DNA of 64,000 nucleotides from the NCBI GenBank assembly GCA_038211455.1, contig JBBQVP010000003.1:157-64156 (forward strand). The letters run 5' to 3'. The translations under genes were made by a program, and so were the position numbers. Numbering within the stretch: position 1 is the stretch's first letter; each line of letters starts with the position of its first letter. Source of the stretch: Burkholderiales bacterium (lineage in GTDB: Bacteria > Pseudomonadota > Gammaproteobacteria > Burkholderiales > SG8-39). A model generated the notes under the pieces. That model made no database searches. It saw only the letters and a list, made by a program, of their open reading frames with translations, and was not told the origin of the DNA. Positions 1-12,505 of the stretch are shown here, one piece after another.

Positions 1-3000
1 ACGACGGGCGCGGTGACAGTGCTGACGCTGGCGGAGACGACGGACGACACGGATTCGATCTTCGGGGTGACGGGCGCGGCTGACATCATCGTCACGGGCG
101 GCGGCACGACACGCAACATCGTCATCGCGGGCCTCGGGGCAGACCATGTGAACGATCCTGGGATCACGCCGACCGATGTGCCAAGTGACGGCGATGACAT
201 CGTGCTGGGCGACAACGGCTACGTCACCTGGGACACCGCGGGTGTGCTGACCGCGTTTGCTTCGACCCAGCTCGCGCAGGGCGGCGACGATATCGTCTAC
301 GTCGGCAATGGCGATAACATTGTGGTGGGTAGTGTCGGCTCCGACGTGATCGTCGCGGGCTCGGGGCGTGATGTACTGATCGGTGACAACGGCCATGTGA
401 CCTACTGGGCGGGCTCTCTGCAGGCGAAGAAGGCGGAAACGACCGACACGGTCAACCAGCCGGGCTGGAACGACGTGATTGTCACCGGGGACGGCGTGAA
501 CATCGTGTTGGCGGGCATGGGCTCTGACCATGTAAACAATCCGCTCGTGTCCACAGGGGCCGTGCCCGGCAGCGACGACGATTTCGTCATGGGTGACAAC
601 GGCGAGTTCAACTGGGACAGCGCCGGACGTCTGGAACTCTTCAAGAGTACTGAACCGGGTTCCGGTGGTGACGACGTGCTCTGGGTGGGAGATGGGCAAA
701 ACTACGTGGTCGGCGGTTTCGGCGCCGATGTGATCAAAGCGGGTGTCGACAACGACGTGCTCTTGGGCGATAACGGCGAAGTCAGCTACACGGCAGGTAC
801 GACACTGGTTCTGCAGGCGAAGACCACCGACGCGACGCTGGGTGGGAACGATGAGATCGATGCTGGTCAGGGCGATAACCTTGTTCTCGCGGGCAAGGGT
901 GCGGACACGGTTGACGCCGGTACCGGCGCAGATCTGGTGATCGGGGACAACGGCCAGATCGACTGGACTTCGGCCGGCATCCTTTACCAGCTGGAGACGA
1001 CCGACACCCTGGCCACGACGGGTGGGAACGACATCCTCCGGGTCGGTGACGGCGACAACTTCGTGATGGGTGGGATGGGGGCGGACTTCATCGTCACGGG
1101 CCTTGGCACCGACACCATCCTGGGCGATAACGGAATCGCGCAGAAGGATGCGGTTGGCCTTGAGTTCGCGCTGGTAGCGACGAAGTCGCAGCCAAGCGCA
1201 GGCGGCGGGGTGGTGGACCTGGGTGGTAACGACCACATCGAGACGGGTGACGGGGACAAGCGGATCCTGGGTGGTGATGGGGCGGACTTCATCCTTGCGG
1301 GCAACGGCAACCATCTGGTGATGGGCGACAACGGCACGATCAGCTACGTGGGGATCGGTCTGACGGGTGCGGGGCTGCCGGAGATCTTCGAGACGACGGA
1401 CACGTTGGCGGCGACGGGTGGCGACGACCGGATCACTCTGGGTAATGCCACGGGCGAGAGCTTCGTGCTGGGTGGTATGGGCGCGGACACGATCCTGACG
1501 GGTTCGGGCACGCACACGATCCTGGGTGACAACGGGATTGCGCAGAAGGACATTGAGGGCAACAACTTCGCGCTGGTGCGCACGAAGTCGCAGCCAAGCG
1601 CAGGCGGCGGGGTGGTGGACCTGGGTGGTAACGACCACATCGAGACGGGTGACGGGGACAAGCGGATCCTGGGCGGTGATGGGGCGGACTTCATCCTTGC
1701 GGGCAATGGCAACCACGTGGTGTTCGGTGACAATGGCCAAGTGACCTATGTGGCGTTGGGCCTTCCAGGAGCCGGTCTGGAGAGACTTTACGAAACCACT
1801 GACACCATTACCGTCACGGGCGGAAATGATGCGATAACGCTGGGAGACGGGAATGGCGTTGTCATCGGCGGGATGGCCGCGGATACGATCACGACCGGGA
1901 CTGGTGGCGAAACGATCCTGGGCGACAACGGACGTATTGAAAGGGACGCCACCGGTGCCGTGTTTGTACGGATCGAAACGACGGTAATCGATCAGGGTGG
2001 TGGCGACGCAATCCTGACCAGAGACGGCAACAAGATTGTTCTTGCGGGTTATGGCAACGACTCCGTTGTGACCGGCACTGGCGACGACATCGTGTTCGGC
2101 GACAACGGTGAAATCGATTTCACCAACGGGATCATCACCAGACTTGCCACCACCGATGTCATCGCGTCGACGGGCGGCGACGACAACATCAATGCGGACG
2201 ATGGCACGAATATTGTCTTCGCCGGGGTAGGCAACGATGCCGTACGGACCGGTGCAGGGGCTGACATCATTGTTGGCGATAACGGCACGATCACCAACGA
2301 TCCGAACGGCATCATCCTGCAAGTCATATCCGGTGATCCTCTGCTCGGCGGCAATGATGCCGTGTCGACGGGCGACGGAAGCAACATTGTCATCGGTGGC
2401 GTTGGAAACGACGCCGTCTTTGGTGGCGCCGGGACGGATCTACTGTTCGGAGACGCCGGCCGTATTGACTTTGTCAACGGGGTCGTGAGCTATATTCTCC
2501 CGATTGACGTCATGCTGGGTGGCGACGACATCCTGGACGGCGCGGGCGGACGCGACATTCTGATCGGCGGTATTGGGTTCGACCAGTTGGGCGGTAATCT
2601 GACCGATGACCTGCTGTTTGGCAGTGTCGCTGCAATCACGCTTTCGGGCGGGACCGTCGCGACCCTGGAAAGCGAATGGCCGGATCTGGAAACCTATACG
2701 CTGTACTCGGCCTTCGATGTTCGCGATGGTGATCGAGGTATCGGCAACCAGCCGTTGACCAGGAAAATCGACCTGCTAGTACCGCGCAAGGGTGCGAGCG
2801 AAGCGCCAGGCAGTGAAATCGGACTATCCACACCGTTGCTCGAAGCGACGGTATTCCAGAAGCTTTTCAATTCGCAGGTCGTGCATCAGCCGTCGTCGCC
2901 CTCGCGGAGCGTGCTCACCGAGGCGGAAGCAGATTCGGTGGCGGGCGGGCAAGGTCTTGGTAACCGAGGTCTGAACGAACCCGGACCGAACGATCAGGGT

Positions 3001-3594
3001 TCGAACGAGCAGCGTTCCAATGAACAAGAGCCCAATGGGCAGAATCCAGGTGCGACAGATCCGAACGGTCAGCTACGGCAAATTCCATCCGGAACGGAAG
3101 AACTGCCCGGACGGTTCCAGGGGCAAGGCGCGGAGCCAGCAGCGGATTCAACTGACGGTCTGGCAGCAGGAGCAGTGAATGTCGGGGGGCTGGTGCTGGA
3201 GGACGGGACAGCCGTAGGTGTACTTGCGGCGGGAGTCGCCGGGGCAATTGGCGTAGAGAGTGTTCTAGGGCGCTCTGCTGCTCCCGGTGGCTATACCGCT
3301 GCTTCAACTGCCAGGCTCTATGATCCAAAGACGGGAAAGATGTCCGCCCGTCCGGAAGTCGGGTCGAAGACGCGTTCAGGGATCCTCGACCGCGATGCCA
3401 TGGCTGGTGGGCGCGAAGGAAAGCCGGCGAGCTTGACGCGGCGTGCGCTCGACGCCATTACGCGCAGGTGGTTCGGGTCGGTTGCAGTTGAGCAGGGCAT
3501 GGCGGTTCACAAGCCGCAGTTGGAGGCCTCAACGCTAGATACGCAGACGGCGCAGAAGCCTCATGAAACCCGGAAGACCCGCATCGAGTGGTAG
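1..3594 (+). CDS. Giant Ca2+-binding beta-roll / RTX-like repeat protein, 5' end outside the window
   Basis: Frame 1 is open from nt 1 (track ORF 13..3594). Units of about 65 aa rich in GxGxD / GDNG motifs are repeated more than 12 times. Canonical RTX nonapeptides GGDDILDGA-GGRDILIGG-IGFDQLGGN lie at about nt 2518-2625. The non-repeat C-terminal ~320 aa has a Q/N/E/P-rich tract, a Gly/Ala hydrophobic stretch and a basic tail. Confidence 0.8.
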   Translation, partial: TTGAVTVLTLAETTDDTDSIFGVTGAADIIVTGGGTTRNIVIAGLGADHVNDPGITPTDVPSDGDDIVLGDNGYVTWDTAGVLTAFASTQLAQGGDDIVYVGNGDNIVVGSVGSDVIVAGSGRDVLIGDNGHVTYWAGSLQAKKAETTDTVNQPGWNDVIVTGDGVNIVLAGMGSDHVNNPLVSTGAVPGSDDDFVMGDNGEFNWDSAGRLELFKSTEPGSGGDDVLWVGDGQNYVVGGFGADVIKAGVDNDVLLGDNGEVSYTAGTTLVLQAKTTDATLGGNDEIDAGQGDNLVLAGKGADTVDAGTGADLVIGDNGQIDWTSAGILYQLETTDTLATTGGNDILRVGDGDNFVMGGMGADFIVTGLGTDTILGDNGIAQKDAVGLEFALVATKSQPSAGGGVVDLGGNDHIETGDGDKRILGGDGADFILAGNGNHLVMGDNGTISYVGIGLTGAGLPEIFETTDTLAATGGDDRITLGNATGESFVLGGMGADTILTGSGTHTILGDNGIAQKDIEGNNFALVRTKSQPSAGGGVVDLGGNDHIETGDGDKRILGGDGADFILAGNGNHVVFGDNGQVTYVALGLPGAGLERLYETTDTITVTGGNDAITLGDGNGVVIGGMAADTITTGTGGETILGDNGRIERDATGAVFVRIETTVIDQGGGDAILTRDGNKIVLAGYGNDSVVTGTGDDIVFGDNGEIDFTNGIITRLATTDVIASTGGDDNINADDGTNIVFAGVGNDAVRTGAGADIIVGDNGTITNDPNGIILQVISGDPLLGGNDAVSTGDGSNIVIGGVGNDAVFGGAGTDLLFGDAGRIDFVNGVVSYILPIDVMLGGDDILDGAGGRDILIGGIGFDQLGGNLTDDLLFGSVAAITLSGGTVATLESEWPDLETYTLYSAFDVRDGDRGIGNQPLTRKIDLLVPRKGASEAPGSEIGLSTPLLEATVFQKLFNSQVVHQPSSPSRSVLTEAEADSVAGGQGLGNRGLNEPGPNDQGSNEQRSNEQEPNGQNPGATDPNGQLRQIPSGTEELPGRFQGQGAEPAADSTDGLAAGAVNVGGLVLEDGTAVGVLAAGVAGAIGVESVLGRSAAPGGYTAASTARLYDPKTGKMSARPEVGSKTRSGILDRDAMAGGREGKPASLTRRALDAITRRWFGSVAVEQGMAVHKPQLEASTLDTQTAQKPHETRKTRIEW
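1117..1914 (+). repeat. Intragenic tandem duplication (two ~400-nt / 134-aa units) inside the RTX-like gene
   Basis: Unit 1 starts at ATCCTGGGCGATAACGG (1117) and unit 2 at 1519 (offset 402 nt). By my hand alignment the core 1180-1314 matches 1582-1716 with only two mismatches (1272 T/C, 1305 C/T). The flanks are much more diverged. Confidence 0.85.
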
Positions 3595-3787
3595 TCGATA
3601 TCGCTCCGCGGTAGCGGAATCCGAGCGGACGCAAGGCCCCGACTTATTCCCTGCGCGTGATCCTCGCGTCTGGCGCGCAATTGAGCATGGTCCGCTTTTG
3701 CGGGACGAGCGCATACAAAGGGTGATGCAACGTCACGCCGTGTAGAAGCGGGATTCCCGACCATCGAATTAAAGAAAAAACTTATAA

Positions 3788-5662
3788 TTGCCCGTTGTGA
3801 AAATCCTCTCCAGTTCCGAAAATGCAGGCATAGAGGAACTAGTTCCCGTCTGGGGACATCTTGCCAGTGCGACGACGCGAAGCGAGTTCTTTAAATCGTG
3901 GCTGCAGCTCCAATGCGAAGCCATTTCGGGAACGATCAGCGGCGTTGCTGTCATAGGCACCGCGGATACCGGTCCGTTTGCTCCAGTCGCATTCTGGCCG
4001 AGCCAGCAGGGCGGCGCACCGCGGCTTGCAGAGGTTGCAGAAAAGGCACTCGCTGAACGGCAGGCCGTGTTGAGCGCGTTGATGCCGCAAGAGAGCCCAA
4101 ATACGCATGTAGACCGATCGCACGGGCTGGCGTTCCCCATCGAATTCGATCACCAGTTGTACGGCGTGGTTGCCGTAGAGGTATCCGATCGACCAGACAG
4201 TGAATTGCAGTGGGCGCTACAAAGACTGCAATGGGGTAGCGCGTGGGTAGAAGCCTATCTGAGGGGCGAGCAGCAGAGGGAAAGTGATGCTACCCAAGAG
4301 CGCCTCATCACCGCATTGGACATGGTCGCCTCCGTGGTGGAGGAAACCCGCTTCGATCCGGCGTGTCGCAGTCTCGTAACGGAGCTCGCGATCAAACTGC
4401 AATGTGACCGCGTCAGCCTTGGAATCGTGCGTCGAGGCCATACCGAAGTGGTCGCGCTGTCGCATAGTGCACAGTTCGGAAAGCGCATGAACCTCATCCA
4501 TGCAGTCGGAGCGGCAATGGATGAGGCGATAGACCAGAAAGCCGTGGTTAGGTATCCAGCGGACGGCGACGACGAGATGGTCGTTATCAGAGACCATGAG
4601 CAGTTGGCGACCATGAATGGAATTGCAGCGGTATTAACGGTGCCCATGGTCGGTCGGGAAGGATTTGCGGGTGCTTTGACTTTCGAGCGTCCTGCCGGCA
4701 TACCGTTTCTCGATTCCGATGTGGAACTCTGCCAGTCTGTCGGCGCTGTGGTTGCGCGGATCCTGGAGATTCAGGAGATCAACGAGCGCTCGCTGTTCCG
4801 GAGGTTTCTGGATTCGGGCAAGACCGAGCTGGAAAAATTGATCGGCCCCCGTCATATCAAGAGAAAGCTGGTCATGGCAGTTTCAGTGTTTCTGGTGGGA
4901 TTCTTTTCCATTGCCACACAGGACTACCGCGTAACCGCCAATGCAACGCTTGAGGGGGCGGTCAGGCGGACCCTGGCGGCGCCGTTCGACGGCTATATTC
5001 TGAGCGCCAAGGCACGGGCTGGGGACGTTGCGACCGAGGGCGCCGTTCTCGCCACGCTCGACGATCAGGACTTGCTGCTGGAACGATTGAAATGGGCAAC
5101 CCAATACGCGCAGTACCTGAAGCAGCATCGGGAGGCTGTGGCAAACCACGACCGCGCCAAAGCGCAAATTGCGGAGGCCCTGTACGAACAGGCACGCGCG
5201 CAGGTCAACCTTCTGGACGAGCAGCTGTCGCGTGCGGCCATCAAGGCGCCGTTCGATGGGGTGATCGTCAAAGGGGATTTGTCGCAAGCACTGGGATCTG
5301 CGGTAAAGCGCGGAGACGTCCTGTTTGAAGTCACGCCTCTGCAGTCGTACCGGGTCATCCTCGAGGTGGATGAAGGCGAAATAGTGGACGTAGCGACTGG
5401 GAGGAAGGGCGCTTTGGTGCTGGGTTCGATTACCGACGCCACGTTTCCATTCACCATAAGGAACGTTACACCGGTCACTAACGCACGTGAAGGGCGGAAC
5501 TATTTCCGGGTGGAGGCTATCCTTGAAGGCGCAACGCAACGCTTGCGTCCAGGCATGGAAGGGGTTGGAAAAATTGAGGTAGAACCCAGAAAGGTGATCT
5601 GGATCTGGACGCACAAACTGGTGAACTGGGCCAGGCTGTTCCTGTGGACTTACCTGCCATGA
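3788..5662 (+). CDS. Tandem-GAF domain protein fused to a HlyD-family membrane-fusion (periplasmic adaptor) domain
   Basis: The N-terminal ~330 aa show two GAF-like patterns (e.g. ...VLTVPMVGREGFAGALTFER...). One TM helix (LVMAVSVFLVGFFSIA). Then a HlyD-type lipoyl/coiled-coil/beta-barrel region (APFDGYILSA...IKAPFDGVIVKGD...). The start is uncertain: TTG 3788 or GTG 3797, with no clear SD. Confidence 0.8.
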   Translation: MPVVKILSSSENAGIEELVPVWGHLASATTRSEFFKSWLQLQCEAISGTISGVAVIGTADTGPFAPVAFWPSQQGGAPRLAEVAEKALAERQAVLSALMPQESPNTHVDRSHGLAFPIEFDHQLYGVVAVEVSDRPDSELQWALQRLQWGSAWVEAYLRGEQQRESDATQERLITALDMVASVVEETRFDPACRSLVTELAIKLQCDRVSLGIVRRGHTEVVALSHSAQFGKRMNLIHAVGAAMDEAIDQKAVVRYPADGDDEMVVIRDHEQLATMNGIAAVLTVPMVGREGFAGALTFERPAGIPFLDSDVELCQSVGAVVARILEIQEINERSLFRRFLDSGKTELEKLIGPRHIKRKLVMAVSVFLVGFFSIATQDYRVTANATLEGAVRRTLAAPFDGYILSAKARAGDVATEGAVLATLDDQDLLLERLKWATQYAQYLKQHREAVANHDRAKAQIAEALYEQARAQVNLLDEQLSRAAIKAPFDGVIVKGDLSQALGSAVKRGDVLFEVTPLQSYRVILEVDEGEIVDVATGRKGALVLGSITDATFPFTIRNVTPVTNAREGRNYFRVEAILEGATQRLRPGMEGVGKIEVEPRKVIWIWTHKLVNWARLFLWTYLP

Positions 5663-5693
5663 AACGCCCGGATTCCCTCCTTCCGGACTGAAC

Positions 5694-7853
5694 GTGGAAT
5701 CCCTGTTCAGTTCCTCCTGGTACCGGGTTGCGAGCGTCGTTCCACGCCTGCGCGGCCACGCTGCCATCCACAGGCACGTCTACCGGGGGAAAGTCTGGTA
5801 CGTGCTTCAGGATCGTGCCACGGGTCGGTATCACCGTTTTTCGCCGATAGCTAACATGGTGATCGGGTTGATGAACGGCAAAAGATCCGTTCGCGAAATC
5901 TGGAATGTTGCCTGCACCCGCCTGGGCGACAACGCGCCGACACAGGACGAGGTTATCAATCTGCTTGCGGCCCTGCACAGGGCCGACGTGCTGCAGACCG
6001 ACGCATCGCCCGATATCCAGGAGCTGCAGGAAAGAAAGATTCTGCAGGAACGCATGAAACTCAAGCAGTACATCCAGAGTCCGCTGTCGCTGCGTATTCC
6101 ATTGCTCGATCCGGACCGGATTCTTCTTTGGATGAGCCCGCTGACGAATCGCCTGTTTGGATTGGGGGGCGCCATCCTCTGGCTGCTTGTAGTCGGATGG
6201 GGAGTTGTCCTGGCTGCTTCAAACTGGACCGAACTGACCAAGGACATGGGTGATCGGATCTGGTCTGCGCAGAATCTTGTCCTGATGGGCTTGGTGTTTC
6301 CGATTGCCAAGATAATCCATGAATTCGGACACGCTGCGGCAGTCAAAGCGCGCGGTGGAGAAGTGCACGAAATGGGCGTGATGCTCCTCGTGCTGATGCC
6401 AATCCCTTACGTGGATGCGTCGGCATCGCTTGCGCTGCGGGAGAAGCGAGACCGAATGCTGGTTGGGGCCGCCGGCATGCTGGTTGAATTGTTCGTGGCG
6501 GCGCTTGCGCTGTTCGTATGGATCAACGTCGAGCCCGGCCTGGTGCGCGCTGTCGCCTACAACGTAATGATTGTGGCGGGCATATCGACGCTTATATTCA
6601 ATGCGAATCCACTGCTTCGCTTTGACGGCTATTACATACTCGCCGATTACCTGGAAATACCGAACCTGGGCCAGCGTTCGAACGAGTATCTCGGCTATCT
6701 AATAAATCGTCACGTTTTCGGAGTCAAGACGGCCGTTTCGAAAGAGTCCACACCGGGGGAGCGTCGCTGGTTCGTCTTCTATGCCATCGCGTCGTTCATC
6801 TATCGGATGTTCGTAATGATCTCCATCGCGCTTGTTGTCGCGCAACGCTACTTCGTGATCGGTGTTCTGTTCGCCGTCTGGTCGTTGTACTCATCGCTGG
6901 TGGTCCCGCTCGGCAAGAAGCTTGCCTACCTGTTCTCGTCCTCGGAACTCCATGGCCGCAGAGTCCGTGCGCTCACGGTAACCGGCTTCACAGTTGCAAT
7001 CCTCGCGATTGCCATCGGCTGGCTTCCCGCGCCATCCTGGACCCGCTCGGAGGGGGTTGCCATCGCGCCGATCAACACGCACGTAAGAGCGACGGTAGAT
7101 GGTTTCATTACGAAGGTCGTCGCGTCGCCCAATCAACTGGTCAGGCGCGGGGATCCGTTGATTTTCACCGAAGACCCCGAATTGAAAGCGCGTGTGCAGT
7201 CACTCGAGGCGCAACTGCTTGAGCAGCAGGCGCGCTATGCGGCGGCACGCGAAGATCGAGTGCAACTAAACATAATCGCGGAGGAAATCCTGCAGGTCTC
7301 AGAGCGGCTGACTAACGCGCGTCAGCGACTCCGTGACCTTGTAATACGCAGCCCGAGCGACGGTTACTTTGTCATGCCGCAGGCGGATGACGCGCCTGGA
7401 AAGTTTGTGCATCGAGGTGAATTGCTGGGCTATGCCCTCGACTTCACCAAGGTGACCGTGCAGGTGGTCGTTCCGCAGAGCGATATAGACATCGTTCGCG
7501 AGATGACGCGTCGTGTGCAACTTCGGCTCGTAGAGCGCGTTGCGGAGGTATTGCCAGGCACAGTTCTCCGGGTCGTGCCGGCGGCGACCGATCAGCTGCC
7601 CAACATGGCGCTGAGCGCACAAGGTGGAGGCGAGGTACCGCTTGATCCGTCTGCGCCGGCCGATCCGGCTCGCAAGGGGGAATCCAAGGCGGCGACGACA
7701 ATGTTTATTTTTGAACTGGAAATCGAGAATAGGGACAGAATCAGTGCACTTGGCAGCCGGATCTACGTTCGGTTCGAGCGAAGACCGGAACCCCTTGCGC
7801 ATCAGTGGTATCGGGCGGTCAGAGGCGTCCTGCTCAAGAAGTTCAATGTTTGA
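5694..7853 (+). CDS. Site-2 protease (peptidase M50) fused to a C-terminal HlyD-type adaptor domain; N-terminal PqqD/RRE-like segment
   Basis: HEFGH zinc motif (IIHEFGHAAAVKARGG) and the second S2P motif NANPLLRFDGYY. Multiple TM helices. The C-terminal ~280 aa have HlyD-like hairpin/barrel signatures (ATVDGFITKV...IRSPSDGYFVMP). GTG start at 5694, 31 nt after the upstream stop. Confidence 0.85.
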   Translation: MESLFSSSWYRVASVVPRLRGHAAIHRHVYRGKVWYVLQDRATGRYHRFSPIANMVIGLMNGKRSVREIWNVACTRLGDNAPTQDEVINLLAALHRADVLQTDASPDIQELQERKILQERMKLKQYIQSPLSLRIPLLDPDRILLWMSPLTNRLFGLGGAILWLLVVGWGVVLAASNWTELTKDMGDRIWSAQNLVLMGLVFPIAKIIHEFGHAAAVKARGGEVHEMGVMLLVLMPIPYVDASASLALREKRDRMLVGAAGMLVELFVAALALFVWINVEPGLVRAVAYNVMIVAGISTLIFNANPLLRFDGYYILADYLEIPNLGQRSNEYLGYLINRHVFGVKTAVSKESTPGERRWFVFYAIASFIYRMFVMISIALVVAQRYFVIGVLFAVWSLYSSLVVPLGKKLAYLFSSSELHGRRVRALTVTGFTVAILAIAIGWLPAPSWTRSEGVAIAPINTHVRATVDGFITKVVASPNQLVRRGDPLIFTEDPELKARVQSLEAQLLEQQARYAAAREDRVQLNIIAEEILQVSERLTNARQRLRDLVIRSPSDGYFVMPQADDAPGKFVHRGELLGYALDFTKVTVQVVVPQSDIDIVREMTRRVQLRLVERVAEVLPGTVLRVVPAATDQLPNMALSAQGGGEVPLDPSAPADPARKGESKAATTMFIFELEIENRDRISALGSRIYVRFERRPEPLAHQWYRAVRGVLLKKFNV

Positions 7854-9840
7854 CACTAAGTCGCTGCTCCCAATCGTCCGCCCGGTGTATCCGGAGCAGG
7901 CAGACGCGCCCCCGGACAACTGGCTCGACGAAATTGGAGAGCGGTTTGTTGGGGCGATGACGCGCTCTGTGAGCGCGTGGCGAATCGGTCGGATCGATAT
8001 TGTCGCGTCGGTACGCACGCATGAAAAGCTGTTGGTCGGACTTGATCAGGACGCTCTCAGGGAGCGTGCACGCGATCTGGGAAAGTTGCTCCGGCGCGAC
8101 GGGTTTCGCCCGGATCTAGTCGCGCAAACGTTCGCCGTGATTTCTTCGCTCGCCGAATTGACGCTCCGCATGCGTCCCTTCGATGTCCAACTGCGCGGTG
8201 GCTGGATACTCGTGAACGGCATGGTTGCCGAAATGGAGACTGGCGAAGGAAAGACGCTCACTGCAACATTGCCTGCTTGCACTGCGGCTCTCGCGGGCGT
8301 GCCGGTACACGTGATCACCGTCAACGATTACCTGGTGACGCGTGATTCGGAGCTGATGACGCCTCTTTACGAGGCGCTGGGGCTTAGCGTCGGCGCCGTA
8401 ACTGAAACGCAGAACCCGGAGCAGCGGAAGCAGGCGTACACGCGAAACATCACCTATGGAACCAACAAGGTGATTGTATTCGATTATTTACGCGATCGAA
8501 TTACCCTGGCCTCTCAGAACAGCTCGATCAGATTACGAATGGAAAGTCTGGCCGGCCGAGGGTCACGGGTCCATCGCTTGCTCCTCAGGGGATTGTGTTT
8601 TGCGATCGTTGACGAGGCGGACAGCGTACTAATCGATGAAGCGCGAACGCCCCTGATCATTTCCGCGCCATCCGAGTCCGGTGATGAGGAGCTCGTCGCA
8701 CGGCAGGGAATCGAAATTGCGGAAACGCTAATCCGGAACGAGGACTATGCGATCCTCGGTAGCGAGAGGACGGCGGTACTTACGCAAGAGGGTCGCCGCC
8801 ACCTGGATGAAATCTGCGAGAAATACGGAGGCGTCTGGGCCGGGTTGATGCGCCGCGAGGAGCTCGTTACACAGGCATTGGTCGCGTTGTACATCTTTTC
8901 CCGTGACGATCACTATCTCGTTCGAGACGGCAAGATCCAGATCATCGATGAGTATACGGGAAGGGTGATGGCCGACCGCTCTTGGGAGCGCGGGATGCAT
9001 CAACTGATCGAGGTGAAGGAGGGGTGTGAAGTGACTGCGCAGAAGGAGCCGCTGGCGCGTATTAGTTACCAGCGTTTTTTTCGGCGCTACCTCCATCTTT
9101 CCGGAATGACCGGAACCGCGAAGGAAGTCGCTTCGGAGCTGGGCGCGGTTTACGGACTGTCTGTAGTTCGCATTCCGACGAATCGGCCGAGCAAGCGAAA
9201 GGTACTGCCCGAACGGGTTTTTGTAACCGAAGCCGAAAAGTGGGCATCGATTTCCGATCGTGTTCGAGAGATACACGCGCTTGGTCGTCCCATACTTCTT
9301 GGAACTCGTTCGGTCGCAGAGTCAGAACTGGCGAGCAACGTGCTAAACGATTTGCGGGTGGAGCATCAGGTTTTAAACGCAAAACAGGACGGAGAAGAGG
9401 CCGCAATCATTGCGTTGGCCGGAAAACGTGGCCAGATTACTGTTGCAACTAACATGGCCGGGCGTGGGACTGACATCAAACTGGATGAAGGTGTCGCCGA
9501 CGTCGGGGGCCTGCACGTGATCCTTTCGGAACGCCACGATTCCAAGCGAATAGACAGGCAGCTCGCCGGCCGCTGTGCGCGGCAGGGTGATCCGGGATAT
9601 TTTGAGTCGATTCTTTCAGTCGAAGGTTCGCTGAAATCTCTCGCAGGGGATTCTTTCCGGGCATTTTTTGGCCGATTGATATCTGGTTTTGGGCCCGGAT
9701 GGGTCGCTATACTTGGATCCTTTGTGATTCGGCAGGCGCAGAAGCGAGCAGAGCGTGCCCATACAAGGACACGCAAGGCGCTTCTCAAGCTGGACCAACA
9801 AATGGCGAAGGCGCTGTCGTTCTCGGGCCGAAATGAATGA
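7846..9840 (+). CDS. SecA-like DEAD-motor ATPase, truncated after the start of the helical scaffold (664 aa)
   Basis: Walker A METGEGKT, VITVNDYLVTRD, VDEADSVLIDEARTPLIIS, a PPXD-like insert, ATNMAGRGTDIKL, GRCARQGDPG, then IRQAQKRAERAHTRTRKALLKLDQQ and stop. ATG 7846 overlaps the upstream stop (ATGTTTGA). The track start at 7624 lies inside the upstream gene. Confidence 0.85.
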   Translation: MFDTKSLLPIVRPVYPEQADAPPDNWLDEIGERFVGAMTRSVSAWRIGRIDIVASVRTHEKLLVGLDQDALRERARDLGKLLRRDGFRPDLVAQTFAVISSLAELTLRMRPFDVQLRGGWILVNGMVAEMETGEGKTLTATLPACTAALAGVPVHVITVNDYLVTRDSELMTPLYEALGLSVGAVTETQNPEQRKQAYTRNITYGTNKVIVFDYLRDRITLASQNSSIRLRMESLAGRGSRVHRLLLRGLCFAIVDEADSVLIDEARTPLIISAPSESGDEELVARQGIEIAETLIRNEDYAILGSERTAVLTQEGRRHLDEICEKYGGVWAGLMRREELVTQALVALYIFSRDDHYLVRDGKIQIIDEYTGRVMADRSWERGMHQLIEVKEGCEVTAQKEPLARISYQRFFRRYLHLSGMTGTAKEVASELGAVYGLSVVRIPTNRPSKRKVLPERVFVTEAEKWASISDRVREIHALGRPILLGTRSVAESELASNVLNDLRVEHQVLNAKQDGEEAAIIALAGKRGQITVATNMAGRGTDIKLDEGVADVGGLHVILSERHDSKRIDRQLAGRCARQGDPGYFESILSVEGSLKSLAGDSFRAFFGRLISGFGPGWVAILGSFVIRQAQKRAERAHTRTRKALLKLDQQMAKALSFSGRNE

Positions 9841-9877
9841 TCGCCACCTTGTATCGCAGCACAATTTGGAAGAACGC

Positions 9878-10696
9878 ATGAAATACCTTGTCTGGGTGTT
9901 AACGCTCGTAGCTGCACTGGGCGCCCATTTTCAGGCGCACGCGCAGAACCCTGTGCGGCAAGGCGACGCTATCTCTGAGCCGCGCAGAGTATTGCGGGCA
10001 CCGCTCCCGAGCGCTTCCGAGGCTAAGTCGTCGCGAAACGCTTGGGACTGTCTGCTGGAGCCCCACTTGGTGGTAAGCGTGGGGAGCCCGATCGATGGGG
10101 TAATTCAGGAGGTGTTGGTTGATCGCGGCGACGAGGTGCGCAAAGGCCAGGTCGTGGCACGACTGCAGTCGGGTGTGGAGTCGGCGGCCGTGGAACTGAC
10201 CAAGGCACATATTGAGTTCGGGAAACGGAAGGTAGAACGCAACGAGGTGCTGTATCAAAAGCAGCTGATTTCCGCGCAGGACAAGGACGATATGGAGACC
10301 GAAGTTCGCCTGCGGGAACAGGAACTGAAGCGAGACCTCGAAAATTTGAAACTTCGCACTATTGTCAGTCCGCTGGACGGAATAGTCGTAGAACGACGTC
10401 TCACGAAAGGTGATCTGGTCCGGGCCGACAGGTCGGTGGTGCTGCGACTTGCGAAGATCGATCCGCTGAATGTGGAGGTCATCGCGCCCAGCGAATCCTA
10501 CGGGGCAGCGCGCATCGGGATGTCCGGCACCGTCAGCCTGCAGCCACTGCTCCCCGGTTCCTACAAAGCTACGGTTGTCACGGTCGACAAACTCATCGAT
10601 GCGGCGAGCGGGACCTTCGGGATTCGGCTGCAAATGCCGAATCCCGGAAACAAGATTCCCGCTGGGCTGAAATGTAGTGTCCGGCTGAATAAATAA
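9878..10696 (+). CDS. HlyD/efflux-type periplasmic adaptor (membrane fusion protein) with Sec signal peptide
   Basis: Internal ATG 9878 gives MKYLVWVLTLVAALGAHFQAHA-QNP (signal peptide). Lipoyl-like motifs (SPIDGVIQEVLVDRGDEVRKGQVVARL; SPLDGIVVER) and a short coiled coil. Confidence 0.8.
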   Translation: MKYLVWVLTLVAALGAHFQAHAQNPVRQGDAISEPRRVLRAPLPSASEAKSSRNAWDCLLEPHLVVSVGSPIDGVIQEVLVDRGDEVRKGQVVARLQSGVESAAVELTKAHIEFGKRKVERNEVLYQKQLISAQDKDDMETEVRLREQELKRDLENLKLRTIVSPLDGIVVERRLTKGDLVRADRSVVLRLAKIDPLNVEVIAPSESYGAARIGMSGTVSLQPLLPGSYKATVVTVDKLIDAASGTFGIRLQMPNPGNKIPAGLKCSVRLNK

Positions 10697-10755
10697 GCCG
10701 TCGCTGGTCGCGGTCGGGGCCGCTGGCTCGCAAGCAGGGGCCTTTGGTGAGCCTC

Positions 10756-10797
10756 TTGACCGGCGTCAATGAGGCGCGCGACTCGAGCGACCATAGT
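10756..10797 (+). promoter_or_regulatory. Crp/Fnr-type box TTGAC-CGGC-GTCAA plus -10-like CATAGT upstream of fhs
   Basis: Perfect palindromic half-sites at 10756-10769. The hexamer CATAGT (10792-10797) is centred 32 bp downstream of the box centre, which is class II (-41.5) geometry. The fhs ATG is at 10835. Confidence 0.55.
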
Positions 10798-10834
10798 GCT
10801 CCCCACTGATAAAAATCCAAGCAGGGGACCTTCC

Positions 10835-12505
10835 ATGCCTTCCGATATCGATATCGCACAAAAAGCCACGCTGCAGCGCATCGCAAAAGTTGCCCAGGAC
10901 AAACTCGGGATTGCCGAGGAACACCTGGAACCGTATGGCCATACGAAGGCGAAAGTTTCGTTCGAGTACCTGGAGACGCTGAAGGGCCGCAAGGACGGCA
11001 AGCTGATCCTGGTCACTGCGATCAGCCCCACCCCGGCGGGCGAAGGCAAGACCACGACCACCGTGGGCCTGGGCGACGCGCTTAACTACATCGGCAAGAA
11101 GGCCGTGATCTGCCTGCGCGAGCCCTCGCTCGGGCCGGTGTTCGGCGTGAAGGGCGGGGCGGCGGGCGGCGGCTACGCGCAGGTGGTCCCGATGGAGGAT
11201 ATCAACCTGCATTTCACCGGTGATTTCGGCGCGATCCAGCTGGCCAACAACCTGCTCGCTGCGCTGATTGACAACCATATCAGCCATGGCAACGAACTGG
11301 GTATCGATGTCCGCCGGATCCAGTGGAAGCGGGTCCTGGACATGAACGACCGCGCGCTGCGAGACATCGTGGTGGCGCTGGGCGGGACGGCCAACGGCTA
11401 TCCTCGCGAGGACGGCTTCGAAATCGTCGTCGCCTCCGAGGTCTTGGCTATCTTCTGCCTCGCGACATCGATCGAGGATCTTAAGAAGCGACTCGGCAAC
11501 ATCGTCATCGGATATACGCGTGACCAGAAGCCGGTTTGCGCGCGCGACCTGAGCGCCCATGGCGCGATGACCGTCCTGCTGAAGGACGCGCTCAAGCCCA
11601 ACTTGGTGCAGACTCTGGAGAACAACCCCGCGTTCATCCACGGCGGCCCGTTCGCGAATATCGCCCACGGCTGCAATTCGGTGATCGCGACGCAGGCGGC
11701 GCTCAAGCTCGCCGACTACGTGGTTACGGAGGCCGGTTTTGGCGCAGACCTTGGCGCGGAGAAGTTCGTCGACATCAAGTGCCGGAAGTCCGGATTGCGG
11801 CCATCGGCGGCTGTCATCGTGGCCACCGTGCGCGCCATGAAGTACCACGGCGGCGCTGACCTGAAGACCATCACCACCGAGAACGTGGATGCGCTTGCCA
11901 AGGGCATCGTGAACCTCGAGCGGCACGTCGAGAACGTGCAGAAGCACTACGGCATCCCATGCGTCGTGTCGATCAACAAGTTCGACGCTGACACCAAGGC
12001 CGAACTCGACCTCCTGTACGAGCGCATGAAAAAGCTGGGCGTGCCAGTCGTGCTGGCATCGCACTGGGCTGAGGGCGGCAAGGGTGCGGCCGAACTGGCA
12101 AACATGGTCGTCGAACTGTGCGAGCAGAAATCAAACTTCCAGTTCGTGTACGAAGAGCAGGACACGCTCTGGGAAAAGGTCAACAAGATCGCGAAGAAGA
12201 TCTACCGCGCTTCCGAGGTCACGGCGGACACCAAGGTCCGCAACCAGATCAAGAAGTTGCAGGAGGACGGGTACGGCCACTACCCCGTCTGCGTGGCCAA
12301 GACCCAGTCCTCGTTCTCCACGGACGCCTCGCTGCGCGGCGCGCCCGTCGACCACGTGGTCAATGTGCGCGAAGTCCGCCTCGCGGCTGGTGCGGAGTTC
12401 GTCGTAATGGTCTGCGGCGACATCATGACGATGCCCGGCCTGCCCAAGGTGCCCTCGGCCAACAAGATCGACTTCGTGGACGGAAAGGTCGTCGGCCTGT
12501 TCTGA
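10835..12505 (+). CDS. fhs: Formate--tetrahydrofolate ligase
   Basis: [16 protein letters not shown]... N-terminus, P-loop [15 protein letters not shown], and full-length (~556 aa) collinear resemblance to Fhs. The start was moved from the track's 10769 to ATG 10835. Confidence 0.95.

Follow-up and report, generated by a model that had tools for sequence, protein, structure and literature searches.

Three lines of earlier work come close to the locus described here. In daptide biosynthesis, MpaP joins an N-terminal RiPP recognition element (RRE; RiPP, ribosomally synthesised and post-translationally modified peptide) to an intramembrane site-2 protease (S2P) and removes the leader (Ren et al. 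2023, bioRxiv 10.1101/2023.03.08.531785), and since MpaP has both parts, the combination of an RRE with an M50 protease was already known. Kamneva, Poudel & Ward (2015, PMC4452313) described a 'secondary SecA_DEAD' module without an ATP-binding cassette (ABC) transporter; they reported its role as unknown, suggested the M50 protein as a pore, had a re-analysis of microarray data as their only experimental side, and mentioned neither a PqqD/RRE domain nor giant neighbours, LEPR-XLL or a substrate. In the literature we found no experimental work on this module beyond that study. Finally, for a pair of LEPR-XLL giants of 36,806 and 20,647 aa both export and movement between partner cells have been demonstrated (bioRxiv 10.64898/2026.03.19.712371); that work credits export to type I secretion system (T1SS) components, leaves an M50/RRE protein unmentioned, and reports that SapC flanks the LEPRxLL giants of Chlorobium chlorochromatii. 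Here we analyse a 64,000-nucleotide stretch from a Burkholderiales bacterium (assembly GCA_038211455.1, contig JBBQVP010000003.1; the whole stretch is hereafter the window), where the second gene of a secondary SecA_DEAD module encodes an M50-HlyD protein whose N-terminus has the profile and predicted fold of an RRE, and which may read and cleave the LEPR leader of neighbouring giant proteins.

The comparison with these and other known systems shows both likenesses and differences. As in daptide MpaP, an N-terminal RRE precedes an M50 core, the match is collinear over both parts, and the same leader logic is proposed. Unlike MpaP, the window protein has extra transmembrane (TM) helices and a periplasmic HlyD adaptor of ~270 aa, its module has a SecA-like ATPase and adaptor paralogues as partners in place of daptide tailoring genes and short precursors, and its presumed substrate is thousands of residues long. 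The module itself is identical to that of Kamneva and colleagues, with GAF-HlyD, Peptidase_M50(-HlyD), SecA_DEAD and HlyD/biotin-lipoyl proteins encoded in one operon without an ABC transporter. In outline it is also like the peptidase-containing ABC exporters with HlyD and TolC and the T1SSs of RTX proteins and giant adhesins (HlyBD-TolC, LapBCE), which have a cytoplasmic recognition or protease unit, an ATPase, adaptors and a TolC-type exit, and whose cargo is often a co-encoded giant calcium-binding repeat protein. Here, however, neither the locus nor the contig has an ABC transporter, a truncated SecA serves as the ATPase, an intramembrane zinc protease fused to an adaptor takes the place of the C39 cysteine peptidase, and an N-terminal LEPR-XLL motif is the candidate signal in place of a double-glycine leader or a T1SS signal at the C-terminus. 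With RseP, SpoIVFB, mjS2P and YydH/LiaK the protein shares HExxH and NxxPxxxxDG in adjacent TM helices, whereas, in contrast to canonical S2Ps, the RRE replaces the regulatory PDZ/CBS domains and an adaptor is fused to the C-terminus. Lastly, the giants Cag_663 and Cag_665 of Chlorobium chlorochromatii begin with the same 24-aa N-terminal LEPR-XLL motif as the giants next to the module, and their neighbours SapC and TolC are also seen in some module loci.

The gene and the parts of its product lie in the window as follows.

5694 to 7853, forward strand: RRE-M50-HlyD fusion gene, an open frame with a GTG start encoding 719 aa (P0001).
5742 to 5993, forward strand: RRE/PqqD-like domain, residues ~17-100, placed by AlphaFold2 (AF2), Foldseek and profile matches.
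6150 to 7028, forward strand: M50/S2P-type core, residues ~153-445, with ~7 TM helices.
6318 to 6332, forward strand: HEFGH, residues 209-213.
6600 to 6629, forward strand: N-A-N-P-L-L-R-F-D-G, residues 303-312.
7038 to 7850, forward strand: HlyD/MexA-type membrane-fusion part, residues ~449-719, with lipoyl-like strands, an alpha-hairpin and a beta-barrel.

An earlier, sequence-only reading of this gene had claimed that a single polypeptide combines an M50 core with a C-terminal HlyD part. All the strings on which it relied, namely HEFGH, NANPLLRFDGYY (residues 303-314) and the N-terminal segment WYVLQD...HRADVL (residues 35-100), were located in the 719-aa translation, and the motifs together with Pfam and NCBIfam matches confirmed a protein of three parts, a cytoplasmic RRE-fold domain, an M50 protease-type core and a periplasmic adaptor. 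That the fusion might be unique to this genome, as an assembly artefact joining two genes, was ruled out because full-length homologues are abundant: a search of a 5.8-billion-protein collection returned more than 7,900 significant relatives, many of which already have a precomputed PF05402 (PqqD) label, and nearly all of the best 120 are 711-722 aa long and align with 100% of the query. A scan of one genome per species gave at least 540 genomic loci. We kept 80 of them for the neighbourhood comparison (some counts below are over 81 loci), from Beta-, Gamma- and Alphaproteobacteria, Desulfobacterota, Nitrospirota, Myxococcota, Acidobacteriota, Methylomirabilota/Rokubacteria and Bacteroidota (Flavobacteriales); individual loci are referred to by L numbers.

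In the gene call on record for the contig (P0002, 665 aa) the ATG of codon 55 is taken as the start, which is 54 codons late (window 5694-5855), and the call therefore lacks the three beta-strands of the N-terminal domain. We took the GTG at 5694 as the true start because the N-terminus is conserved among the homologues, with SxSWYRVAxLxPRLRxHxxIHRHxYRGxxWYVLQD common to all relatives. Proteins of this kind are currently annotated as 'efflux RND transporter periplasmic adaptor' or 'putative peptide zinc metalloprotease', and their starts can be miscalled and the RRE thereby lost, as in P0002.

The proposal that the N-terminal segment is a PqqD/RRE domain was borne out by both the sequence profile and the predicted fold. 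In the Pfam scan of the full protein PqqD (residues 36-99) came slightly under the gathering cut-off, and the N-terminus scanned alone matched PF05402 with 23.1 bits (cut-off 23.4; E = 9.1e-5). When 52 diverse N-termini were scanned singly, 46 matched PF05402, the best at 3.2e-8, and essentially no other family was found. A profile built from these 52 N-termini and compared with the PDB sequences retrieved PqqD alone (3g2b, E = 0.0028, profile residues 17-101 against 13-94 of 95; 5sxy, E = 0.096). As Foldseek on the full-length model reported the adaptor part only, the N-terminal domain was modelled separately, and the AF2 model of residues 1-135 (predicted local distance difference test score, pLDDT, 85.6; predicted template modelling score, pTM, 0.70) has strands at 23-30, 33-40 and 46-49 followed by helices at 51-58, 66-80 and 84-96. 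Searched against the PDB with Foldseek, this model retrieved RREs first, the top match being leader-bound TbiB1 (5v1v; E = 7.7e-4, target-normalised TM-score 0.76), with TfuB1 with its leader (6jx3; target-normalised TM-score 0.73) and TruD, LynD, CteB, TigE, ThcOx and SuiB as further matches, so that lasso, cyanobactin and sactipeptide RREs are all covered. The invariant or near-invariant positions are R48 in the beta3 region, G62, and Q84, L90 and L94 in alpha3; beta3 and alpha3 form the canonical leader-peptide groove of RREs. By profile and by model, then, the N-terminal ~100 aa are a domain of the RRE/PqqD type.

The M50 core that follows has the expected protease motifs. Two independent diverse alignments (n=30 and n=32) show no variation at H209, E210, H213, N303, N305, P306 or D311, and H209-E210-x-x-H213 and N303-x-x-P306-x-x-x-x-D311-G312 are placed in predicted helices. 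Hydropathy and the full-length AF2 model (pLDDT 78.5) agree on TM helices at 153-179, 192-219 (with HExxH), 253-277, 284-304 (running into NxxPxxxxDG), 359-384, 386-407 and 423-445, and on a beta-hairpin at 224-242; with an odd number of helices, the RRE is cytoplasmic and residues 449-719 are periplasmic. The NCBIfam model NF041824 (daptide_HExxH) matches residues 17-396 over positions 1-355 of 379 (E = 9e-47, 160 bits), and since the equivalog cut-off is 300 bits and daptide genes are missing nearby, we regard the protein as a homologue and not a member of that family; a LiaK/YydH model of NCBIfam also matches (E = 5e-10). Given the invariance of its motifs, the protein is a putative protease. 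In the adaptor part, HlyD_D23 and HlyD_3 are over their cut-offs at residues 462-634 (PF16576, 37.2 bits, cut-off 30; PF13437, 37.8 bits, cut-off 22.2), an alpha-hairpin at 495-547 is made of helices 495-517 and 522-547, and the full-length model matched MexA, MacA, AcrA and EmrA at E ~1e-11 in Foldseek.

A candidate substrate for this protein adjoins the module.

1 to 3594, forward strand: 3' part (1,197 codons) of the gene for a giant RTX/calcium-binding repeat protein, the putative cargo, with HemolysinCabind at E = 2.7e-22.

The 5' end of this gene lies beyond the start of the contig (C3), of which base 157 is the first base of the window. Residues 38-1031 of the encoded part are 42% identical to the C-terminal part of a 15,301-aa LEPR-XLL giant at L001, and the RTX protein is presumed, from this homology and its position, to be cargo of the module. 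A same-strand open reading frame (ORF) of at least 1,000 aa ends just upstream of the module in 30 of 56 loci, and it is usually cut by the 10-kb flank. We scored the leader with the LEPR-XLL model of NCBIfam (NF012209; 24 positions, cut-off 17 bits), which the start of the L008 neighbour, MMESLEPRLLLSATP, matches with 21.8 bits. Of 20 genomes in which a giant ORF lies upstream of the module, 19 have matches over the cut-off, against none of 14 control genomes. More specifically, wherever the contig includes the N-terminus of the giant next to the module (18 of 18 loci), that giant (4,610-15,301 aa) begins with a LEPR-XLL match over the cut-off; at L034 and L070 the N-terminus of the giant is off the contig. 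Aligned, the starts of the giants show a basic stretch, then f-E-a-L-E-P-R-l-L-L-S-A-D, and then unrelated sequence.

The association extends beyond immediate neighbours. Of 301 genomes from the phylum, taken as a fixed sample, 89 encode a relative of the RRE and M50 part at E <= 1e-10 and 49 have a LEPR-XLL match over the cut-off. The RRE/M50 relative is present in 48 of the 49 LEPR-positive genomes and in 41 of the 252 LEPR-negative ones (odds ratio 247, Fisher p = 1e-29, a statistic that ignores phylogeny), the sole LEPR-positive exception being a genome that is 69% complete, and at least 32 of 82 LEPR matches lie within 10 kb of an M50 match. The leader also varies with the M50-HlyD protein, in three subfamilies.

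Orthologues: 47-53% identity to the window protein; full SecA module; leader EALEPRLLLSAD.
Second subfamily: ~33% identity; full GAF/M50/SecA module; leader E(K)LE[DE]RILLSAD.
Third subfamily: 26-30% identity; SecA and GAF genes not nearby; leader xALEPRI(L/M)(F/L)D(A/G)A.

The N-terminus of the third subfamily is a divergent RRE-like domain (hhalign against the profile of the 52 N-termini, probability 79.6%, E = 1.5e-5), and one of five members matches PqqD. The genome that contains the window has a gene of this third tier, P0122 (730 aa, 26% identical; contig C53, L087:4602-6794, minus strand). It immediately precedes the gene for a DUF4347/cadherin/VCBS giant (L087:3-4346, minus strand) with the N-terminus YMALEPRIVFDGALAAD; no SecA-like or GAF gene is nearby, and the same pairing recurs in L144-L147. 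As the leader variants track the M50-HlyD subfamily with or without SecA, the M50-HlyD protein, and not the SecA-like ATPase, is the constant partner and a near-universal genomic companion of the LEPR leader. The sequence-only reading had suggested that the protease may recognise and cleave a leader or anchor of a specific substrate on its way into the adaptor; the conservation of the LEPR-XLL motif, the co-occurrence and the covariation strengthen that idea.

With moderate confidence, and on the strength of sequence comparison and structural models, we therefore see the M50-HlyD protein as the probable inner-membrane processing and adaptor subunit of an ABC-less, SecA-like-driven module, which would read and cleave the LEPR leader of giant proteins in a step coupled to their export. 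Under this proposal the RRE would bind the LEPR-XLL leader while the giant is still nascent or unfolded in the cytoplasm, with the leader added as a beta-strand against beta3/alpha3 as in RiPP enzymes. Binding would dock the cargo at the membrane machine and present the leader to the membrane-embedded M50 site, which would cleave it; the SecA-like ATPase would then push the chain through an inner-membrane passage, and the three adaptor paralogues would pass it on towards a TolC-type channel encoded elsewhere.

Several observations weigh against this proposal. Peptidase_M50 (PF02163, residues 204-303) reaches only 20.6-23 bits with a cut-off of 27.2, although 27 of 32 homologue cores match it at E <= 0.01, and a profile of the M50 core detected no solved S2P relative among the PDB sequences. 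The genome from which the window comes gave no LEPR-XLL match at or over the cut-off, and because the 5' end of the RTX gene is missing, a leader can be assigned to this protein only through homology to the L001 giant. A directly adjoining giant gene on the upstream side is missing from about 45% of the loci whose upstream sequence is long enough. The co-occurrence and covariation could reflect co-inheritance of an operon and not direct contact, all the more as the statistics ignore phylogeny. RRE-like domains may be vestigial or make protein-protein contacts; the giants also have C-terminal regularities, and classical RTX-type export uses C-terminal signals. Moreover, for every member of the family binding, cleavage, secretion, the direction of transport and passage through the inner membrane are all inferred.

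Alternatively, the RRE-like domain could be an assembly or regulatory module and not a cargo reader, docking on the SecA-like ATPase, the cytoplasmic part of the GAF-HlyD protein or a DUF3467 protein, with the M50 core serving mainly as a TM scaffold or pore. We consider this unlikely, but it has points in its favour: a pore was what Kamneva and colleagues suggested, the strongly conserved SxSWYRVAxLxPRLR stretch that precedes the RRE has no counterpart in PqqD, and a DUF3467 gene lies just upstream of the GAF-HlyD gene in 23 of 56 loci. Against this, the invariance of HExxH and NxxPxxxxDG argues for retained catalysis, the third subfamily keeps its RRE-like domain next to LEPR-type giants while lacking the SecA and GAF partners, and the leader variants follow the M50-HlyD subfamily. 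DUF3467 is in any case not an obligatory ligand, because it is absent from the window and from the whole genome.

The giants' C-termini offer a different target, since the protease could cut an Ala/Gly-rich hydrophobic segment there, or act as a quality-control or release protease, while the RRE holds the cytoplasmic tail. About 15 of 34 giants, the window's RTX protein included, have an Ala/Gly-rich hydrophobic stretch with an Arg/Lys cluster 40-140 aa from the C-terminus, and [IVL][DNQSE]W occurs in the last 130 aa of 15 of the 34, compared with 4.8% of background windows (the window protein ends in RIEW). S2Ps, moreover, favour helix-destabilised TM segments. However, the tails are heterogeneous, of at least two types, and far less universal than the N-terminal motif found in 18 of 18 giants; an FDxxTGxF-like motif was not clearly enriched in the C-termini (6 of 34, against 5.4%); and MpaP, the closest characterised relative, removes an N-terminal leader. 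Taken together, these points leave cleavage at the C-terminus rather improbable in our view.

Two further features of the C-termini were recorded. In many giants a Q/E/P-rich tract is followed by the Ala/Gly-rich hydrophobic stretch with the Arg/Lys cluster and then by the tail, as at window positions 2900-3594 and in L001, L003, L009, L010, L012, L022, L034, L051, L054, L061 and L070. Gibbs sampling of the C-termini found mainly an unrelated HExxGH zincin block in a subset of giants (G-W-F-V-D ... M-D-L-L-S-V-x-x-H-E-x-G-H-x-x-G), in the last ~150-200 aa at L011, L015, L017, L025, L032, L041, L042, L058 and L064, which is possibly a self-processing or effector metalloprotease domain.

That the module is instead a RiPP system of the YydH/LiaK or daptide kind, which matures and exports a small ribosomal peptide while the giants are bystanders, is very improbable: the daptide_HExxH and YydH/LiaK matches would fit it, and RREs have so far been known from RiPP pathways only, but the daptide score is far under its equivalog cut-off, the association with LEPR-XLL giants is strong, and when every ORF of 35 aa or more in 81 loci was clustered, neither a precursor-like family nor tailoring enzymes emerged. 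The only conserved small gene was that for DUF3467, with a domain of ~75 aa, which is absent here; the other recurrent extra families were SapC and antisense shadows of real genes. The intergenic regions and flanks in the window likewise held chance ORFs only, so that neither there nor in the 81 loci was a credible or conserved precursor-like ORF found. A conserved short precursor with tailoring enzymes, which would define a RiPP cluster, was thus not found in the 81 loci, where the neighbours are adaptors, the SecA-like ATPase and giants. The parallel with YydH-type peptide export drawn in the sequence-only reading is accordingly not supported, a truncated SecA standing in place of the ABC exporter and a giant protein being the candidate substrate.

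If the protein does read and cleave the LEPR leader, the implications reach beyond this locus. LEPR-XLL giants are among the largest bacterial proteins and so far lack an assigned export or processing machinery of their own; the RRE and its link to LEPR would join two orphan observations into one testable model of leader-guided, protease-coupled export. RRE biology would extend beyond natural-product biosynthesis, and RRE-based genome mining would face a large class of non-RiPP matches. More tentatively, and with somewhat less than even confidence, we suggest that an RRE has been recruited as an address reader in protein secretion and, together with a wingless SecA that replaces an ABC transporter, marks a distinct, unnamed class of Gram-negative machine with at least three co-evolving leader/reader subfamilies and giants of 4,000 to more than 15,000 aa. 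The RRE-S2P pairing (daptides, 2023), the four-gene module (2015) and LEPR-XLL as a motif of giants are already in print; we did not find in print the RRE in the M50-HlyD subunit of the module, its link to the LEPR leader, or the three leader/reader subfamilies.

The remaining genes of the module flank the M50-HlyD gene as follows.

3788 to 5662, forward strand: GAF-HlyD protein, 624 aa, with Pfam GAF at residues 191-324 and HlyD_3/HlyD_D23 at 395-590.
7846 to 9840, forward strand: truncated SecA-like ATPase, 664 aa, with Pfam SecA_DEAD (2.4e-96), SecA_PP_bind and P-loop_SecA.
9833 to 10696, forward strand: small membrane-anchored HlyD/biotin-lipoyl adaptor, starting at ATG 9833 or 9878, with TIGR01730 (RND_mfp) at 113.9 bits, over its cut-off.

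The four genes are tightly packed (3788-10696), with overlapping or close starts and stops and fhs downstream, and the same order is kept in nearly all of the 80 related loci, which makes the M50-HlyD gene the second gene of the secondary SecA_DEAD module. The GAF-HlyD protein has a cytoplasmic N-terminal region with the GAF domain, one TM helix and a periplasmic adaptor, and in 76 of 81 loci its gene immediately precedes that for M50-HlyD. The SecA-like gene, whose start overlaps the M50-HlyD stop by 8 nt, follows in 65 of 81 loci; its product has the first and second nucleotide-binding domains (NBD1 and NBD2) and the preprotein-binding domain (PPXD), and with no SecA_SW match it lacks the wing/scaffold. 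The small HlyD gene is kept downstream of it in most loci. A scan of 3400-11000 found no promoter-like site, and terminator-like sites were at chance level.

Departures from this order and additional neighbours were also seen. At L004, L065 and L076 the small HlyD gene comes directly after the M50-HlyD gene and a SecA-like gene was not detected, which, together with the SecA-less third subfamily, suggests that the SecA motor is dispensable or replaceable. The DUF3467 (PF11950) proteins encoded upstream of GAF-HlyD are 95-140 aa long (for example L001:7797-8138 and L008:7632-7973), with a variable N-terminus and a conserved core of ~75 aa, and their profile has no relative among the PDB sequences. 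In about ten loci (for example L011:9081-9950) the giant gene and the module are separated by a gene of the SapC family (PF07277).

Finally, other contigs of the same genome hold related genes. Contig C358 (2.2 kb) has a second GAF-HlyD gene of 627 aa (L084:233-2116, minus strand), followed by the first 74 codons of another RRE-M50-HlyD gene (L084:1-222, minus strand; 40% identical); the two belong either to a second module of this genome or to contaminating sequence in the bin (contamination estimated at 7%). The 64-kb contig has no match to an ABC ATPase or to OEP, and an ABC ATPase is not among the conserved neighbours of the module either, but seven other contigs of the genome have OEP matches and ABC ATPases likewise lie elsewhere in it. 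At C30:18895-22376 in the same genome, a T1SS-like ABC exporter gene (377 bits to TIGR01842, under the equivalog cut-off) comes after a TolC-type gene, and this conventional T1SS-like pair is a possible source of the outer-membrane channel.

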